From: a phage
DNA length: 64,000 nucleotides
Sequence record: OZ346219.1
Reading direction: 5' to 3' (one strand)
This document shows positions 42,951 to 48,321 of the stretch, piece after piece (position 1 is the stretch's first letter; the number at the start of each line of letters is the position of its first letter). The position numbers were made by a program, and so were the translations under genes. Under the pieces are notes generated by a model. It saw only the letters and a program-made list of their open reading frames with translations, ran no database searches and was not told the origin of the DNA.

Positions 42951-43607
42951 TTAAATGTTCGCGAGAATCGCGCTTTCAAATTCTTCTAATGTACCATTAT
43001 TTATGATAATGGTTTCACCGTCAATAGGCAAAATTCCTTTTTCGGTGGAGTGAGTAGATACAATACCAGTATCACGCTGAATATGCAACACCTTAGCACC
43101 CATAGCACGCATGAGAGCAATTTCAATAGGCTGACGCACATCAACCACTACAAAATACCCTTCTTCATTTTTGCGCTTCATAAACTCATCCACAAAGAGA
43201 TTACACCAATAAAGCGGATTGATCAAGTTAACCATTATATCAGTACCGAGAGTGGTTAACATGAGACGAATAGACCAGACGTTATTATGTTTTTCTCCGA
43301 TCTCATTAACAACCTTGTAAATCTCAGCCAGACGATCACAAGTAAAGGAACTACCGCCATACTTCGAATCTAGCATAAGCAGACACTGAATAAACCACTT
43401 ATGCGCGGTATATGTATCAATACCTAGATCGGCTTCTCTGTCACGCCCTAACCCATCAAAGTCAAGATAAGTCAGACCTAAGTCTGGTTGACATTCGCAT
43501 AAGATTTCTTTGATCGGTGCTGCCAGTTGATAACTATGTCCATCAATTATTAACGCGGCAGTGTCTTTTCCTACTCGCTTTTTACCACAAAGTGCAATCA
43601 GTTTCAT
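42951..43607 (-). CDS. 1: Deoxynucleoside monophosphate kinase (gp1-like)
   Basis: 218 aa; P-loop MKLIALCGKKRVGKDTAA aligns to T4 gp1 MKLIFLSGVKRSGKDTTA; also LMRAMGAKVLHIQR and C-terminal NNGTLEEFESAI; AAGAGG SD. Confidence 0.85.
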   Translation of the reverse strand: MKLIALCGKKRVGKDTAALIIDGHSYQLAAPIKEILCECQPDLGLTYLDFDGLGRDREADLGIDTYTAHKWFIQCLLMLDSKYGGSSFTCDRLAEIYKVVNEIGEKHNNVWSIRLMLTTLGTDIMVNLINPLYWCNLFVDEFMKRKNEEGYFVVVDVRQPIEIALMRAMGAKVLHIQRDTGIVSTHSTEKGILPIDGETIIINNGTLEEFESAILANI

Positions 43608-43622
43608 TATATAAGCCTCTTA

Positions 43623-44213
43623 TTACTTTCTAAAAGCAGGGTGCATAGCTTTAATACCTTCCACCCGCTGACGATCCGCCGCCTGAATTGCTGGGCGAGG
43701 AACGATCAGTTGACCATCACGTTCAATGCTCATTGTTTTAAAGGGAAGAATTGCAGTACACACCAGAGATTCATGCATATCATCGGTGTATGTTAACTCA
43801 AGTTCCCCCAATTGTGAACACCAACAACCATAAAAGTTAAAAGTGCACACAATGTTACGTCGTTCGTTGTCCATCATGTGAACTTGAACGGCTTCCGGCA
43901 TTGAATCCTTCCACGCAGTGGAGTTACCGTTATTGTAGTCTACTATAGAAAGCATCCATGTGTAAAGGTTTAGATAGCTTTCCAAATGCTCATCGACAAT
44001 AAACCGGACTACCAACGGGTCAAACTCCACATGACTAGACGGATAATCAGCGACCGCCAAACCATATTGACCAGCAACTTGCTTAGTCGGTGGAATGGTT
44101 ATAGCAGGAAGTGTAACACCTTGAGCATTTAAAGTAAAGCCTTTTGTTAGCTGTCCATCTGGAATATTGATCTGCCAGTTGCTAGGGTTAGCATAGTTAA
44201 AGAGATTAGACAT
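43623..44213 (-). CDS. Putative tail completion/sheath stabiliser (gp3-like by synteny)
   Basis: 196 aa; GAGGAA SD; lies between gene 1 and the gene-2 candidate as in T4; late-promoter-like AATAAATA upstream; no sequence-level confirmation. Confidence 0.45.
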   Translation of the reverse strand: MSNLFNYANPSNWQINIPDGQLTKGFTLNAQGVTLPAITIPPTKQVAGQYGLAVADYPSSHVEFDPLVVRFIVDEHLESYLNLYTWMLSIVDYNNGNSTAWKDSMPEAVQVHMMDNERRNIVCTFNFYGCWCSQLGELELTYTDDMHESLVCTAILPFKTMSIERDGQLIVPRPAIQAADRQRVEGIKAMHPAFRK

Positions 44214-44234
44214 TACTGATTCCTCAAATGAAAA

Positions 44235-44242
44235 TATTTATT
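44235..44242 (-). promoter_or_regulatory. Possible late promoter for the gene 3 candidate
   Basis: Minus-strand AATAAATA, one mismatch to TATAAATA, ~20 nt upstream of ATG 44213. Confidence 0.3.
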
Positions 44243-44250
44243 AACAATTG

Positions 44251-44275
44251 TCGCTTTGCGACGTGCCGTAGGCAC
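44251..44275. promoter_or_regulatory. Two adjacent short palindromes in a divergent intergenic region
   Basis: TCGCtttGCGA and GTGCCgtaGGCAC between divergent genes 43623-44213 and 44403-44657. Confidence 0.3.
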
Positions 44276-44402
44276 TGACTACTTTTTAACCGAAACAAAT
44301 TTTTATTATTCTAAAGATCTTTCTTCGTTTTGGTTATGTTTTAACCAATAACTATATTTTTATACAGTAATAAATAAAACGGGTACTATACGAGGACTTC
44401 TT

Positions 44403-44657
44403 ATGACAGAAGACATTTTGTTAAAACTCTATGATCGTCTGGATAACGAATTAGCAACATTGCGGGGTGAAGTTCTCTATTTGTCTAAATGCAATACAGA
44501 TCTGCTTAAGCAGATTGCAGAAAGGGATGATCAAATAAAATCCCTTTCAGGTGCATTACGTGATCGCGACAAGGCATTAGAGATTTTACAGCGTGTTACC
44601 AATAAGGAAGAATTAAAAGACTTCTTACATGGTTATGCTCATGCTATCGATCTATAA
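44403..44657 (+). CDS. Hypothetical coiled-coil protein
   Basis: 84 aa; only plus-strand gene inside the minus block; GAGGA SD; ends at bidirectional terminator 44657-44690. Confidence 0.4.
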   Translation: MTEDILLKLYDRLDNELATLRGEVLYLSKCNTDLLKQIAERDDQIKSLSGALRDRDKALEILQRVTNKEELKDFLHGYAHAIDL

Positions 44658-44690
44658 TAAAAAAGCCCGTCAATGACGGGCTTAATTTTT
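44657..44690. terminator. Bidirectional rho-independent terminator
   Basis: AAAAAAGCCCGTCAATGACGGGCTTAATTTTT; serves plus gene 44403-44657 and minus gene 44689-45741. Confidence 0.65.
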
Positions 44691-45741
44691 AATATGTATC
44701 AGCTAATTTAATTATGTTATCAAGTTCCGTGATTGGTAAAGTTTCTGTGTATCCATCTTTCAACATGGATTTATCAACAACGCCACAATGATAAGTTCTC
44801 TTTATTTCCTTTTCAAGTTCCCACGGAATCCAGCCATCAACACTTTGTTTGACGTAAACAAGTTTGTGAACAAACTTAGATTTCTGCATATGTTGTTTCA
44901 TTCTGGTTTCCGGTAATTCATTGGTTACACCAAACTTTATAAATTTATCATCTAACGTCTGGATATAAAAATATCCCATCTCAGATGGACGATAGCCAGA
45001 AGAACTACATTTCGGACACCCTTTAGCATTTCTGTTGAACGTACAATATCTTACGGAAAATTCTGCATCATGTTTTGTACATTTAAGTTTTATCCATGAA
45101 TTTGCAGTACCTATCCATTCACCATCGACACCTATATATTCATACCCTAACTTTTTACATTTATCTTCTATTCTAGATAGTGCATCTTCCACGGGAACGA
45201 CATATTCCATCTTAAATTGTTCAGCCGCGCATTTCTTACAACCACATGTACCATGATTTTTAAAATCAAAGAACTTTGTATTCTTCCAAATATGGTCATG
45301 TTTCTTGCATCTAAGAATCATCTTAGTAATTTGTGATTTCCACCCACCAACAAATCCCAAAAATTCATAATCAAGATCTTTACATTTTTCTTCAATGAAT
45401 TTGGTTGCTTCCTCTTCTGTCATAACTCCCCTACATTGAGGGCAACCAACAATAACCTTTTTAGCATAGAAACTATTACTGGAAACATCATAGACAGATC
45501 CATGCTTATTGCATTGGATAACAGATCTAGTCAATTTTCCTTTCCATTCTCCAGAAAATCCTAAAAATGTATGGTCGACAAGTTTACACCTCTCAATAAC
45601 TTTGTCCGCAAATTCTCTAGGAGATTTTGTTACTTTGTTTACTCTGTATTCTATTTCTTCCGGTTGACGAAGATCATAAACGTGGGGATTGCTCCCCACG
45701 GAATTAATATTAAGCATCCTTCCACACCTTCCTTGCATCAT
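44689..45741 (-). CDS. GIY-YIG/T5orf172-like nuclease-domain protein with three tandem Cys-rich repeats
   Basis: ATG 45741 (AAAGG SD; track start 45819 overlaps upstream gene); three ~60-aa repeats F.EKC..L.YEFLGF.GEWKG...C.KH...GCP.C then C-terminal GYFYIQTLDDKFIKFGVTNELPETR; sits between the gene 3 and gene 2 candidates. Confidence 0.5.
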   Translation of the reverse strand: MMQGRCGRMLNINSVGSNPHVYDLRQPEEIEYRVNKVTKSPREFADKVIERCKLVDHTFLGFSGEWKGKLTRSVIQCNKHGSVYDVSSNSFYAKKVIVGCPQCRGVMTEEEATKFIEEKCKDLDYEFLGFVGGWKSQITKMILRCKKHDHIWKNTKFFDFKNHGTCGCKKCAAEQFKMEYVVPVEDALSRIEDKCKKLGYEYIGVDGEWIGTANSWIKLKCTKHDAEFSVRYCTFNRNAKGCPKCSSSGYRPSEMGYFYIQTLDDKFIKFGVTNELPETRMKQHMQKSKFVHKLVYVKQSVDGWIPWELEKEIKRTYHCGVVDKSMLKDGYTETLPITELDNIIKLADTY

Positions 45742-46531
45742 AGTTTTTACCTTTAGAAACAAATTTATATGTGTTAAGGTAGATAATATTGCTCCAGTCT
45801 TTCGGGCTAATCTCAACAAGTTTTGTTTTAATGTGTCCAGGTAGATATGCTTTGATCATGTGATCACTTCCACGCATACCTTTTACATCGCTCCATTTGA
45901 TTTTTAAGCGTGTTTTATTGCTCAAGGTAGGAGTAGATGCATATTGCTTTAAAAGTGCCTCTAAAAACTGCTGACGGGCTTTAGGCGTTACATAGTGTAA
46001 GTTAAGACCCAGCATTACAGTATTACCCGCCTTTGTCTTAGAATCACCCAGACAAATGATCAGCGGGAAAACATCCCAATATGGCAAAGTGTCTTTATAC
46101 TTCGCATCATACATAAAGGTATAGATTCGCCCTACTTGCGGTTTTACAATCTGGTGTCCCTTTATTCCCGCTTTTATTGTTTTAGTAAACCACTCCTGTG
46201 ATTTTTCTTTAGGACGACTCTTTGATACAGCACGCATAGACGCACGAAAATCATTAATCATCATCATTGCGCGTTGCTGCTTATTGAGACCCTTTGCTCC
46301 TTTCCCTTTTAGTTTTTCAACTTCTATTGCTGTTTTAATTTCGCTGGCATAACGAGACATACTTTTAGTGAAAGTCGCATAGGCTATTCCCTTAGAATCT
46401 GCAAATGCTTTAGCTGTCATACCTTTGGCTTTTGCTTTCGCAAATTCTACACCCAATTCGACCCACTGTTTAGACTTTCGTTTTTGGGGAGACGGCTTTT
46501 CGTCTTCTGTGATTATTTCAAATACGCTCAT
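45710..46531 (-). CDS. Putative DNA end-protector (gp2-like by synteny and size)
   Basis: 273 aa (T4 gp2 is 274 aa), strongly basic; GAGGATAATATT leader; position between gene 4 and gene 3 candidates. Confidence 0.5.
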   Translation of the reverse strand: MSVFEIITEDEKPSPQKRKSKQWVELGVEFAKAKAKGMTAKAFADSKGIAYATFTKSMSRYASEIKTAIEVEKLKGKGAKGLNKQQRAMMMINDFRASMRAVSKSRPKEKSQEWFTKTIKAGIKGHQIVKPQVGRIYTFMYDAKYKDTLPYWDVFPLIICLGDSKTKAGNTVMLGLNLHYVTPKARQQFLEALLKQYASTPTLSNKTRLKIKWSDVKGMRGSDHMIKAYLPGHIKTKLVEISPKDWSNIIYLNTYKFVSKGKNYDARKVWKDA

Positions 46532-46542
46532 AATATTATCCT

Positions 46543-47016
46543 CTATTTGTTAAGACCTTTAAAGCCAAACACTTTCTTTAATGCATGTTCGGTGATGATC
46601 TTAAACTCCATGTTATGCTTTTGGCATAATTTCACGGCAGCTAACCATTTTTCAGTATTTTTTGTGTATGTCCATACTTCATGCATATATCGTTGCTTTG
46701 TCTTCGCGGTCATTCTTTTTGGCTTTTCCGGTGGCCTTGTCTCTTTAGCTGGTTTAACTTCCCATAAATGCTCCTTGCCATCATCAAACTTAACGTAAAA
46801 ATCCATAAAGTATCTGTGTCTTTTCCCGTCTGTTGATGACTCATAAGGAATTACTACGGTCTCAGATCCCCATTTTGCAACTCTAGGATTGCGGTCTAAA
46901 AATTTCATTATATGTAATTCCCAACTTGACCTGTAGACGATTTTTTTCAGGTCGCCTTTATACTTCTCCGGGTTTTCAGGTCTATATTTACCCTTATATG
47001 TGTTGCAATTACCCAT
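46543..47016 (-). CDS. Putative head completion protein (gp4-like by synteny); PD-(D/E)xK-like motif
   Basis: 157 aa (T4 gp4 ~150 aa); AAGGTGG SD; FMDFYVKF...HLWEVKP resembles a D...E.K nuclease motif. Confidence 0.45.
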   Translation of the reverse strand: MGNCNTYKGKYRPENPEKYKGDLKKIVYRSSWELHIMKFLDRNPRVAKWGSETVVIPYESSTDGKRHRYFMDFYVKFDDGKEHLWEVKPAKETRPPEKPKRMTAKTKQRYMHEVWTYTKNTEKWLAAVKLCQKHNMEFKIITEHALKKVFGFKGLNK

Positions 47017-47711
47017 TATACCACCTTCTTCTTGCAGTTGTCACCATGCCATCTAACATAATTTCCCTGATTGGCTGTTTTTCCACAATGAGGACAGGTG
47101 AAATACGGACGAGACTTTGACAATTCACTATATTTTTGTTTCATTTCTGGCGTGTTATGAATACGTTTCCATTTCTCTACGTTTTCTTGTGACAACTTTC
47201 TACCCTTACCCGCTTTAGAGATGTTGTCTCTCCATTCTTGTGTAATTTCTCTTGACGCAATATTTCTTTTATGTTCTTCTGTAAACACTCTACCTTTTAA
47301 TGAAGCAGATAATTTCTGTCGATGTTCCTCAGATAATTTAATTCCTTTTCTCTTTCCTTTAGTTGCTTCTGATATTCTGCGTCTAGTCTCTTCGGATCTT
47401 TTTCTTCCTGTATGAAATTTTCTTGAAGTCTCGACCGCAAGTTTTCTTACCCACTCAAATTGTTTATTGTTATAGTTGGTAGACCCCATCAATATTTTCG
47501 CCGCATGTACAATTCCGTGATGTGTTGGATGCATTTTTGCTAAAAGTTGATGAGCAACAAAATGTTCAGACCCCGTTAACTCAACTATATTTTCTGGACT
47601 ATCATCACCTCCCATACAACGAGGAATAATATGATGTTTTTCTTTATATCCTTCAAGCGTTCTATGCTTTGCGCGTTCAATTAATCGATCATAATGTTTT
47701 TGATAGTCCAT
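47016..47711 (-). CDS. HNH homing endonuclease (Mob-like) with basic repeat region and zinc finger
   Basis: 231 aa; HHIIPRCMGGDDSPENIVELTGSEHFVAH HNH core; repeated basic G[KR]..SEEH[KR] motifs; C-terminal CPHCG; divergent from gene 53 and shares its leader through a 14-bp inverted repeat. Confidence 0.75.
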   Translation of the reverse strand: MDYQKHYDRLIERAKHRTLEGYKEKHHIIPRCMGGDDSPENIVELTGSEHFVAHQLLAKMHPTHHGIVHAAKILMGSTNYNNKQFEWVRKLAVETSRKFHTGRKRSEETRRRISEATKGKRKGIKLSEEHRQKLSASLKGRVFTEEHKRNIASREITQEWRDNISKAGKGRKLSQENVEKWKRIHNTPEMKQKYSELSKSRPYFTCPHCGKTANQGNYVRWHGDNCKKKVV

Positions 47712-47769
47712 TTTAGCACCCTTTATTATAAATACATAATACTATTTATCAATTGAGGGTGCTAAAATG
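47709..47769. repeat. Perfect 14-bp inverted repeat containing both divergent start codons
   Basis: 47709-47722 CATTTTAGCACCCT and 47756-47769 AGGGTGCTAAAATG; includes HNH ATG (47711, minus) and gene 53 ATG (47767, plus); flanks late promoter. Confidence 0.7.
47727..47734 (+). promoter_or_regulatory. T4-type late promoter (TATAAATA) for gene 53
   Basis: Exact TATAAATA ~33 nt upstream of gene 53 ATG. Confidence 0.55.
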
Positions 47770-48321
47770 CTCTTTTCTTTCTTCCCTGCCATTGAATACA
47801 ACGGCAAGATGATTACTGACATTGTGCGCAATTACCGCGCATATTTCAACGCAATAATTTCTGATTATAACATACAAACATATTACATTCAAGGGAGTCC
47901 ACGACCGGAACAAGTTGCATATGAAGTATACGGAAACCAACAACTTTATTGGATCTTGCTGATGCTTAATGACGTATACGATCCGTTCCATGACTGGATC
48001 ACCGATCAAGAGACAGCATATGAATCAGCCGAACAGCGATATGCAAATGTAGGAGGAAATCAAGTATTATACCACGTTGATATTGACGGAAACAAGTATT
48101 GGAATCTTACCGAATATCCGAAAGGATCAAGCAATTGGTATGATAAAGGGGATATTCATCATCGTCATTTGCAGTTTCAAGGTGCACTATCGGCAGTAGA
48201 CACACTGGAAGATGCGATTCTCCGCAATGAGGAACGACGCAAGATCAAGATCATAGATCCTACACAAATTAAACAATTTATTAACGCATTCATTCGAGAA
48301 ATGGAAAAGGCTGATGTGTAA
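47767..48321 (+). CDS. 53: Baseplate wedge protein gp53
   Basis: 184 aa; MLFSFFPAIEY, YYIQGSPRPE, QLYWILLMLND, VDTLEDAIL align to recalled T4 gp53; late promoter TATAAATA at 47727-47734. Confidence 0.9.
   Translation: MLFSFFPAIEYNGKMITDIVRNYRAYFNAIISDYNIQTYYIQGSPRPEQVAYEVYGNQQLYWILLMLNDVYDPFHDWITDQETAYESAEQRYANVGGNQVLYHVDIDGNKYWNLTEYPKGSSNWYDKGDIHHRHLQFQGALSAVDTLEDAILRNEERRKIKIIDPTQIKQFINAFIREMEKADV

Follow-up and report, generated by a model that had tools for sequence, protein, structure and literature searches.

The DNA analysed here, a window of 64,000 nucleotides, belongs to a coliphage of the T4 type, namely an RB49-like Krischvirus. On its minus strand, at positions 44689-45717 and next to late gene 2, it carries a gene for a 342-amino-acid protein that is probably, with a likelihood of roughly three in four, a free-standing homing endonuclease; within the GIY-YIG superfamily it would belong to the T5orf172 branch. 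A homing endonuclease gene is indicated since it is present or absent at one exact site, is accompanied by a recoded flank, is distributed independently of the flank phylogeny, has left partial tracts in phages that lack it, and shares its site with a second member of the family. A preliminary description had proposed a free-standing element of this kind with a zinc-finger array, and the domains of the protein, the exact-site polymorphism and the linked recoded flank all support that proposal. Nuclease activity and homing are what we infer for the protein from these sequence features.

The two late genes between which the preliminary description had placed the element were identified by profile matches and by the annotation of relatives, which agree. 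The gp3 gene (43623-44213, minus strand) matches the gp19-type tail tube family of Pfam and phrog_45, and the gp2 gene (45710-46531, minus strand) matches phrog_429, the DNA end protector; both are annotated under these names in related phages. Alignment of the gene 3-2 junction with RB49, MIZ6, ELT4, W115, Makalu_003, SSG23, kaaroe and JEP8 demonstrated that carriers and empty sites differ at one exact site. The carrier-specific segment spans 44687-45709, so that 1,023 nt stand in place of a single nucleotide between a terminator and the gp2 stop codon, and the junction is identical in all carriers. The insertion is therefore the endonuclease gene alone and not the longer interval first taken for it, as the 84-amino-acid gene, the terminator and the divergent intergenic region with its palindromes are near-identical in all relatives without the endonuclease gene, such as RB49. 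The 84-amino-acid gene and the palindromes were considered as parts of the element and were excluded as invariant backbone in these relatives.

The 84-amino-acid gene (44403-44657, plus strand), the equivalent of RB49 ORF130, matches phrog_17832 over its full length (2e-57) and was found in all endonuclease-less relatives examined; it belongs to the conserved backbone of Krischviruses and lies outside the mobile element. The gene itself had been correctly recognized, and the coiled coil ascribed to its product rests solely on weak matches to coiled-coil families (E 0.01-0.07). In the divergent intergenic region between gp3 and this gene lie two adjacent 13-nt hairpin palindromes, also backbone, which had been noticed before and whose span is corrected here to 44250-44275. 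By direct reading of the sequence the first (44250-44262) is GTCGC-TTT-GCGAC and the second (44263-44275) is GTGCC-GTA-GGCAC; they are conserved in 16 of the 16 Krischvirus loci compared, the loops alone carrying substitutions, and one arm pair also scored in the scan for terminator-like sites. The same scan, which returned five sites in the region against 0.9 expected, and an inverted-repeat search both recovered the bidirectional intrinsic terminator already described between the 84-amino-acid gene and the minus-strand gene. It occupies 44663-44683 with a 9-bp stem, six G-C pairs and T-runs on both strands, and is kept in all relatives; it belongs to the backbone and delimits the insertion on the left. 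From its sequence, the terminator is predicted to end both the transcript of the 84-amino-acid gene and that of the gp4-gp2 unit, with or without the endonuclease gene.

Among Krischviruses the endonuclease gene is the exception. Of 59 Krischvirus records, nine cover the region in full and most others lack about 1 kb of it; a protein of at least 80% identity is encoded in 11 phage records (about nine distinct phages), and about ten carriers stand against about 40 Krischviruses that lack exactly this 1,023-nt segment. Presence and absence thus alternate at one precise site among close relatives. Because the gene is missing from most relatives, it can have no fixed role in the virion; a defined role of that kind would have counted against the original proposal. 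The nearest relative of the window in both flanks is kaaroe, a phage without the gene, at 0.1% and 0.7% divergence, and carriers and non-carriers are intermingled in the flank phylogeny, which the distribution of the gene does not follow.

The recoded 3' end of gene 2, comprising its last 23 codons and the stop (45710-45779, minus strand), travels with the endonuclease gene. Within these 70 nt it differs from the phages lacking the gene by 19 fixed nucleotide differences and five amino-acid changes, so that carriers and non-carriers diverge by 20% in the tail against 0-3% across the rest of gene 2. Such a flank difference, confined to a short tract, is characteristic of homing genes, and we presume from the alignment that the tail is a co-conversion or immunity tract that marks where the target site should be expected. 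Partial tracts occur in phages lacking the gene, from position 16 or later in MIZ4 and from position 28 or later in kvi, and both phages are recombinants that do not carry the gene. The alleles of Phi1, of the metagenomic contig L019 and of PTE-Eco09 have their own distinct gp2 tracts. The mobile unit therefore reaches 70 nt into gene 2, an extension that the preliminary description had missed. With the last 23 codons of the essential gp2 rewritten by mobile-element traffic, the matter also bears on the use of gp2 as a phylogenetic or typing marker.

The endonuclease reading frame ends at a TAA (44689-44691) and is the ortholog of Phi1 ORF130.1. It had been described as a 350-amino-acid gene; the reading frame stands, and its length is ambiguous. 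The ATG at 45717, which gives the 342-amino-acid reading, is annotated in most relatives and overlaps the gp2 stop as ATGCTTAA. In-frame alternatives are found at 45738 (349 amino acids) and 45741 (350 amino acids), the latter agreeing with the FL37 annotation and with database cluster P0001. We consider the start ambiguous because annotated starts differ and homologues from outside the Krischvirus group begin further in than the ATG at 45717. The product matches phrog_681, 'endonuclease' (1.2e-78), relatives annotate the gene as 'endonuclease' or 'putative GIY-YIG nuclease family protein', and homologues are present in 443 phage records. No NCBIfam family matched the protein, and tblastn within the window returned no paralogs.

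The endonuclease gene is the last of the late gp4-gp2 transcription unit, and its expression is probably held low by a GC-rich hairpin just downstream of the start. This hairpin (45681-45700, minus strand), CGUGGGGAGCAAUCCCCACG followed by UUUAUGAUCUU, begins 17 nt past the ATG at 45717 and appeared both in the terminator-like scan and in the RNA fold, with a local energy of -16.3 kcal/mol. Its 7-bp core stem is the same in three alleles, and the loop and the outermost pair vary. The region around the start codon as a whole was marginally more stable than shuffled sequences (z -1.9), and the local hairpin is the sole robust RNA structure there; we regard it as a candidate attenuator of endonuclease transcription or translation. 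Late-promoter-like sequences lie before gp3, before the 84-amino-acid gene and inside the recoded gp2 tail. They are offered as suggestions only, because neither motif is enriched: TATAAATA occurs four times against six expected and TAATAAATA three times against 1.8 expected. Promoters of the sigma-70 type are equally close to expectation, with seven in the region against 6.9. An additional and rather doubtful possibility is that the recoded tail embeds the endonuclease's own late-promoter-like TATAAAT, its ribosome-binding site and its start codons within an essential gene. The sequence TATAAATT in the same tail is a candidate transcript start.

The N-terminal part of the protein belongs to the CapR family of Pfam (PF21817), which it matches in three stretches with 55.4 bits, the cut-off being 24.2 (E 7.1e-15); so do all of the 32 homologues aligned. 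Repeat 1 (residues ~31-96, 45430-45627) was delimited by the Pfam match together with the repeat alignment, repeat 2 (residues ~97-165, 45223-45429) contains the best Pfam stretch at residues 108-161, and repeat 3 (residues ~166-240, 44998-45222) was placed by the repeat alignment; all three are encoded on the minus strand. The candidate zinc ligands are C69, H72, C91 and C94 in the first repeat, C137, H140, C160 and C163 in the second, and C213, H216, C234 and C237 in the third. Each repeat has C-x2-H followed 18-22 residues on by C-x2-C, the first pair being Cys/His and not Cys/Cys, and the two ligand pairs have the arrangement of CapR, where CxxC and CxC stand about 20-26 residues apart; zinc binding is accordingly predicted. 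Within the family C160, C163 and C213 are invariant and C137 is nearly so. In CapR the zinc-finger cysteines are required for DNA binding (PMC8096241). The three tandem, zinc-ribbon-like Cys repeats of the preliminary description are thus present, but its view that such a DNA-binding array is unusual does not hold, as T5orf172 homing endonuclease genes have been described as being built, as a rule, with tandem zinc-finger repeats of the CapR/DUF723 type (Barth et al. 2023, PMC10448857). CapR was found in 95 of 229 such genes, and one of three related zinc-finger domains in 200 of the 229 (PMC10448857).

The C-terminal domain (residues 241-342, 44692-44997, minus strand) is of the T5orf172/GIY-YIG type. 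The GYFYIQ...KFIKFGVT...R segment that had suggested such a core is present, and the predicted domain has the alpha/beta fold of GIY-YIG nucleases. Strand 1 contains Y251, strand 2 contains K261-F262-G263, and R272 and E302 belong to helices 1 and 2, respectively; a DGYTET motif lies at residues 321-326. Y251, K261, G263, R272 and E302 are invariant across the 32 homologues, as is DGYTE. A tyrosine in strand 1, an arginine in helix 1 and a catalytic-type glutamate in the helix after strand 3 are therefore conserved where the fold needs them (Y251, R272, E302), and the catalytic residues whose absence would have spoken against a nuclease are in place. From their place in the fold, we take these three to correspond to Y6, R27 and E75 of I-TevI. 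In one tested case the activity of a T5orf172 nuclease depends on the conserved glutamate (PMC10448857).

In profile searches the window protein stayed below the thresholds of the Pfam T5orf172 and MUG113 families (PF10544/PF13455), with no match at E ≤ 0.1, and for the C-terminal domain alone the best match was GIY-YIG (PF01541), whose 14.5 bits fall short of the cut-off of 22.6. PF10544 and PF13455 were passed by 14 and 12, respectively, of the 32 full-length homologues (E ≤ 0.01), and NCBI gives full-length homologues with MUG113 or T5orf172 domains the name 'GIY-YIG nuclease family protein'. The homology to T5orf172/MUG113 is thus transitive, because some full-length homologues pass the Pfam models and all of them share the invariant residues. 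Comparison with known structures gave little: phmmer with the protein and a hidden Markov model of the C-terminal domain returned chance-level matches only from PDB sequences, so that no GIY-YIG protein of known structure was picked up by the domain profile at the sequence level; an hhalign comparison of that profile with the catalytic domain of I-TevI gave no match; and Foldseek of the full-length model against the PDB gave nothing meaningful, the best hits (E 0.019) being unrelated folds.

The window and FL37 encode the same protein (100% identity). Orthologs occupy the identical position in ECD7, FL37/FL38, G2248, ELT3, Cognac, pEJ01 and Skers, the ECD7-type copies being 98-100% identical. 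Phi1 ORF130.1 (YP_001469475, 'endonuclease'), also at this position, is 80.8% identical to the window protein and is a mosaic allele, with 100% identity in the nuclease domain, 95.5% in repeat 1, 64% in repeat 2 and 51% in repeat 3, and a gp2 tail that differs from that of the window. This second allele, with its own tract, is also found on L019. In the accessible part of the 2010 comparison of RB49 and Phi1, most phage-unique genes are ORFans and the text does not mention ORF130.1 (PMC2839356). The gene that PTE-Eco09 carries at this site has 27% identity and combines four CapR repeats with a T5orf172 domain, next to a gp2 tract diverged over about 500 nt. As the nuclease domain is identical in the two alleles, repeat 1 nearly so, repeats 2 and 3 exchanged and the gp2 tail different for each, one might tentatively view the CapR array as a naturally modular, swappable DNA-recognition code, such that the alleles would differ in target specificity and could home into one another, a reading of the alignments that we hold to be rather doubtful. 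If it were true, Krischvirus coliphages would be well suited to working out how a DNA sequence is recognized by CapR fingers in tandem.

As a homing endonuclease the protein would read a long DNA site with its three tandem CapR-type zinc fingers, and its C-terminal nuclease domain (Y251, R272, E302) would cut the gene-less allele during mixed infection, most likely in the final ~70 bp of gene 2 in phages of the RB49 type. The break would then be repaired by the recombination machinery of the phage with the carrier genome as template, which would copy the 1,023-nt gene and, along with it, a short donor gene 2 tail, and the 19 substitutions in that tail would render the carrier allele uncuttable.

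It is unlikely that the protein is instead a domesticated relative of such enzymes that no longer homes and serves either as a sequence-specific DNA-binding regulator of the CapR kind or, like the Odn of ICP1, as a nuclease for defence against competing phages or satellites or for their exclusion. Precedents exist for both roles, as CapR domains act as a transcriptional repressor in PLE (PMC8096241) and in Odn a T5orf172 nuclease has been turned against the origin of a satellite (PMC10448857). A nuclease domain that is 100% the same in two alleles, while their repeats 2 and 3 show differences of 36-49%, fits selection for changing DNA specificity, and Barth et al. state that bioinformatics alone cannot separate an active from a domesticated homing gene (PMC10448857). 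Yet CapR itself has no nuclease domain, whereas all conserved nuclease residues are kept here, and profile searches found no satellite-derived or RepA_N-type domain in the protein. Most close relatives live without the gene, and one exact site, a recoded flank and partial-tract recombinants are expected for homing and are not required for a regulator.

The polymorphism and the linked tract could also have arisen by ordinary recombination with a diverged donor, without present endonuclease activity, and the gene would then be passive cargo or a decayed homing gene, spread by general homologous recombination alone, for instance at hairpins or terminators, as suggested for PeSL cassettes in RB49 and Phi1; we consider this quite unlikely. 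The difference in gene content between RB49 and Phi1 has largely been put down to recombination of promoter and stem-loop cassettes, with stems that are often GGGG...CCCC (Arbiol et al., PMC2839356). Here, a terminator hairpin bounds the insert on one side, a GGGG...CCCC hairpin lies near its other end, and free recombination is seen in the flanks. However, no PeSL-type pair of promoter and stem-loop flanks the insert and the right junction falls inside the gp2 coding sequence, and PeSL-mediated shuffling (PMC2839356) was rejected as the main mechanism on these two grounds. The reading frame is moreover intact in every carrier (98-100% identity), with all catalytic-type residues kept, and three family members or alleles at one site, each with its own diverged gp2 tract, would be difficult to account for if the site were not specifically targeted. 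We give a negligible chance to a role in virion structure or packaging that is tied to gp2/gp4, whether for completing the head or for protecting DNA ends. The gene does lie in a late operon with its start overlapping the gp2 stop, but about 40 viable Krischviruses lack it entirely, which effectively refutes the idea, its domains are a zinc-finger array and a nuclease, and homologues occur in unrelated contexts such as T5.141, between tail chaperone and tape-measure genes.

The Krischvirus-type phage lineage is known to be full of selfish genes, and the endonuclease gene adds one more ordinary case, of a type described before, and gives a clean natural example of how genes of that type spread. 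As a homing endonuclease gene it would form part of a natural series in easily handled E. coli phages that comprises empty sites, two repeat-swapped alleles and a distant third family member, and the recombinants that lack the gene narrow where the determinants of cutting and resistance must lie. T5orf172/CapR homing endonucleases are widespread and their homing was experimentally unverified as of 2023, and the locus offers modest value as a model system.

In I-TevI and the T4 Seg proteins (e.g. SegG) the nuclease domain is N-terminal. Compared with these the window protein has the reversed domain order, with the nuclease at the C-terminus; its second motif is K-F-G in place of Y-I-G, and it is predicted to bind DNA by a zinc-finger array, unlike the NUMOD or helix-turn-helix modules of I-TevI and Seg. 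The closest likeness is to the putative T5orf172 homing genes of ICP1 and other phages, which have the same N-terminal CapR-type repeats, arranged like 'beads on a string', and a C-terminal T5orf172 domain (Barth, Dunham & Seed 2023, PMC10448857; Netter et al. 2021, PMC8096241). Like the window gene, those of the ICP1 type adjoin essential genes, vary in presence, undergo repeat shuffling and mark the boundaries of genetic exchange; the 2023 survey states that homing 'has not been experimentally verified' even for the relatives in ICP1, which are the best studied (PMC10448857). The accessible portions of that survey and its supplements do not mention RB49-like phages (PMC10448857). The window gene differs from the ICP1-type genes in its host, a T4-type coliphage of the Krischvirus group, in its site between gp2 and the terminator, in its zinc ligands (C-x2-H...C-x2-C against CxxC...CxC in CapR), and in being too diverged to pass the Pfam T5orf172 threshold. 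The satellite-encoded repressor CapR of PLE shares the zinc-finger domain family, is without a nuclease domain and represses a promoter, and the anti-satellite Odn of ICP1 shares the T5orf172 nuclease family and is targeted to the satellite origin by a RepA_N domain. Unlike CapR and Odn, the window protein keeps both modules together with homing-type population genetics.

The source phage of the window is a Krischvirus, an RB49-like T4-type coliphage, and in the 4.1-kb region around the minus-strand ORF at 44689-45717 it shares 99.4% identity with Escherichia phages FL37 and FL38, 98.4% with ECD7 and 94.3% with Phi1. Gene 1 (dNMP kinase, 42951-43607), gp3 (43623-44213), gp2 encoding the DNA end protector (45710-46531) and gp4 for head completion (46543-47016) are on the same strand, and a plus-strand 84-aa ORF (44403-44657) separates gp3 from the ORF under study. 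Its product is 342 aa long from ATG 45717, which is made of the last gp2 codons (GAT GCT TAA, read as ATG CTT AA). Starting at the in-frame ATG 45738 or 45741 would lengthen the product to 349 or 350 aa, and since public annotations vary (342, 343, 344 or 350 aa), the 350 aa of the preliminary description is one legitimate reading.

At a protein identity of at least 80% the gene was found in 11 phage records (about 9 distinct phages), all Krischviruses carrying it at exactly the same position. In about 40 other Krischviruses, including RB49, the gp2 stop codon lies 4 nt from a terminator stem; the insertion is 44687-45709, or 1,023 nt in place of one nucleotide. It was previously proposed that the insertion also includes the 84-aa gene, a bidirectional terminator and two palindromes. 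The terminator (44663-44683, 9-bp stem) and the palindromes (adjacent, 13 nt each, 44250-44275) are real, but these elements, like the 84-aa gene (ORF130 in RB49) and all of the gp3/ORF130 intergenic region, hardly vary in any of the relatives compared and therefore belong to the backbone. Identical copies of the TAATAAATA motif at 44235-44243 (minus) and 44368-44376 (plus), 21 nt upstream of the gp3 start and 26 nt upstream of the 84-aa gene start, each precede a GAGGA-type ribosome-binding site and are possibly divergent late promoters; the motif occurs 3 times in the window with 1.8 expected, which is not significant. Carriers and non-carriers intermingle in both flanks, and the closest relative of the window, kaaroe, lacks the gene (0.1% divergence over the left 1.4 kb, 0.7% over gp2 on the right).

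When six carriers were compared with eight non-carriers, 19 substitutions were found to be fixed in the 3'-terminal 70 nt of gene 2, adjoining the insertion (20% divergence, 5 amino acids changed), with an abrupt fall to a 0-3% background in the remainder of the gene and no diverged tract on the opposite side of the insertion. MIZ4 (L017, 701-786) and kvi (L018, 322-407) are recombinants inside this tract that have most of the carrier-type gp2 tail and the empty-site junction, and lack the endonuclease gene. Counted from the gp2 stop, the crossover is at positions 4-16 in MIZ4 (carrier-type from position 16 or later) and 19-28 in kvi (from position 28 or later). These natural recombinants could be used to map resistance determinants.

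Residues ~31-240 of the protein form three tandem Pfam CapR homology domains (55.4 bits, cut-off 24.2), each with candidate zinc ligands C-x2-H...C-x2-C. Residues 241-342 alone reached no Pfam threshold, the top match being GIY-YIG (PF01541, E 0.043, 14.5 bits). In an end-to-end alignment with 31 homologues, several of them named "GIY-YIG nuclease family protein" by NCBI, 14 of the 32 sequences matched MUG113 and 12 matched T5orf172, and Y251, K261, G263, R272, E302, D321, G322 and E325 were invariant. On these among other lines, the segment is placed in the T5orf172 branch of the GIY-YIG superfamily. PDB searches by sequence alone and Foldseek of the full model were uninformative; a phage-family library labels the whole protein "endonuclease" (phrog_681, 1e-78).

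Other alleles and family members occupy the same site. Phi1 carries a mosaic allele, identical to the window in the nuclease domain (100%) and progressively less so in repeats 1 (95.5%), 2 (64%) and 3 (51%), with a different gp2 tail of ~83 nt. A metagenome contig from a more diverged Krischvirus-like phage (SRR28822591_1771, 1684-3532) has a Phi1-type allele whose repeats 2 and 3 are 86-87% identical to those of Phi1, and a gp2 tail nearer to that of Phi1 than is the remainder of its gp2, suggesting that Phi1 obtained the gene along with the tail from a lineage of this kind. In PTE-Eco09 the identical site holds a different 380-aa gene of the family (L003, 2190-3332, minus; 27% identity) with four CapR repeats and a T5orf172-like domain, next to a diverged gp2 tract of ~500 nt.

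Taken together, the site-exact presence or absence, recoded gp2 tail, intermingled flanks and partial tracts favor the earlier suggestion of a free-standing homing endonuclease-like gene, and the locus fits the textbook life cycle of such genes (probability about 0.75). The zinc-finger array would bind the empty allele and the GIY-YIG-type domain would cut it, most likely within the final ~70 bp of gene 2. Repair by recombination with a co-infecting carrier would then bring in the gene with a variable length of donor gp2 tail, whose substitutions would shield the carrier from self-cleavage. Tracts without the gene, as in MIZ4 and kvi, would be the expected trace of repair resolved before reaching it, which argues for a cut inside gp2 and not at the insertion point. 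That the gene has been domesticated as a CapR-like regulator or an Odn-like defence nuclease is an unlikely reading, which does not predict a polymorphism at one specific site together with linked and partial tracts, although Barth et al. themselves caution that sequence cannot decide against it (PMC10448857). Slightly less probable still is passive shuffling by general recombination, as with PeSL-type cassettes (PMC2839356), as the flanking cassette pair is absent, one junction falls within gp2, the ORF is intact in every carrier and one site is targeted by three distinct alleles or family members. A role in the virion is excluded by the relatives lacking the gene.

The gene is probably expressed when late gp4-gp2 transcription reads through into it, with translation coupled to that of gp2. 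A GC-rich hairpin (45681-45700) lies 17 nt past ATG 45717, its core stem conserved in three alleles, and the unrelated PTE-Eco09 gene has its own analogous intergenic hairpin terminator with a T-run between gp2 and the start codon; both suggest attenuated expression, which is common among phage homing endonuclease genes, such as those of T4 and Aeh1. The carrier-type gp2 tail (45722-45765, minus) also creates, by a Gln-to-Lys replacement and synonymous changes in gp2, TATAAATT, followed by AAGG and by an ATGATG in frame with the endonuclease; the empty allele has none of the three and reads TATCAGTT and TACGACGCA there. Embedded in gp2, these could serve as late promoter, ribosome-binding site and start; the window shows no enrichment of TATAAATA-type motifs, and the Phi1 allele is without TATAAAT.

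An unrelated HNH and NUMOD3 gene (47016-47711, minus; phrog_655, 1e-64) directly follows gp4 and is a second homing endonuclease gene, so that such a gene lies on either side of gp2-gp4. None of 59 Krischvirus records covered at least 80% of 44600-47800; thus, none has both this gene and an ECD7-type T5orf172 gene. Phages with neither, with the T5orf172 gene only and with the HNH-NUMOD3 gene only were all found, and the window has both. In Cognac (L010, 3832-4146) the DNA downstream of gp2 is unlike the gp4 region of the window and a plus-strand gene is annotated instead, which may be another rearrangement at this hotspot.

Homologues of the endonuclease were found in 443 phage records, including an RB49 ORF (139420-140370) and T5.141 of T5 (L005, 292-1044; tblastn 1e-24, 92% coverage in two pieces). 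T5.141 sits between tail assembly chaperone and tape-measure genes, and unrelated phages therefore also have members of the family beside essential structural genes. The DNA-binding array, at first regarded as unusual, has the architecture of published T5orf172 homing endonuclease genes (PMC8096241, PMC10448857). Netter et al. (2021) connected CapR with a T5orf172 protein family of ICP1 and demonstrated that DNA binding depends on the conserved cysteines of CapR (PMC8096241). Barth et al. (2023) found CapR domains in 95 of 229 T5orf172 homing endonuclease genes and one of three related zinc-finger domains in 200, often repeated "like beads on a string" and undergoing domain shuffling, the genes being located at boundaries of genetic exchange (PMC10448857). 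Phi1 ORF130.1, the ortholog of our gene, entered GenBank with the Phi1 genome (RefSeq label "endonuclease"), and a 2024 paper lists it with the Phi1 genes that other Krischviruses lack (PMC11611945); our literature search found no paper on the homing site, alleles or tracts of this one gene. As of 2023, homing by T5orf172/CapR endonucleases was without experimental verification (PMC10448857), and the locus offers a convenient coliphage system for testing it. The gene is a well-behaved further example of the known T5orf172/CapR type, and would not surprise a specialist.
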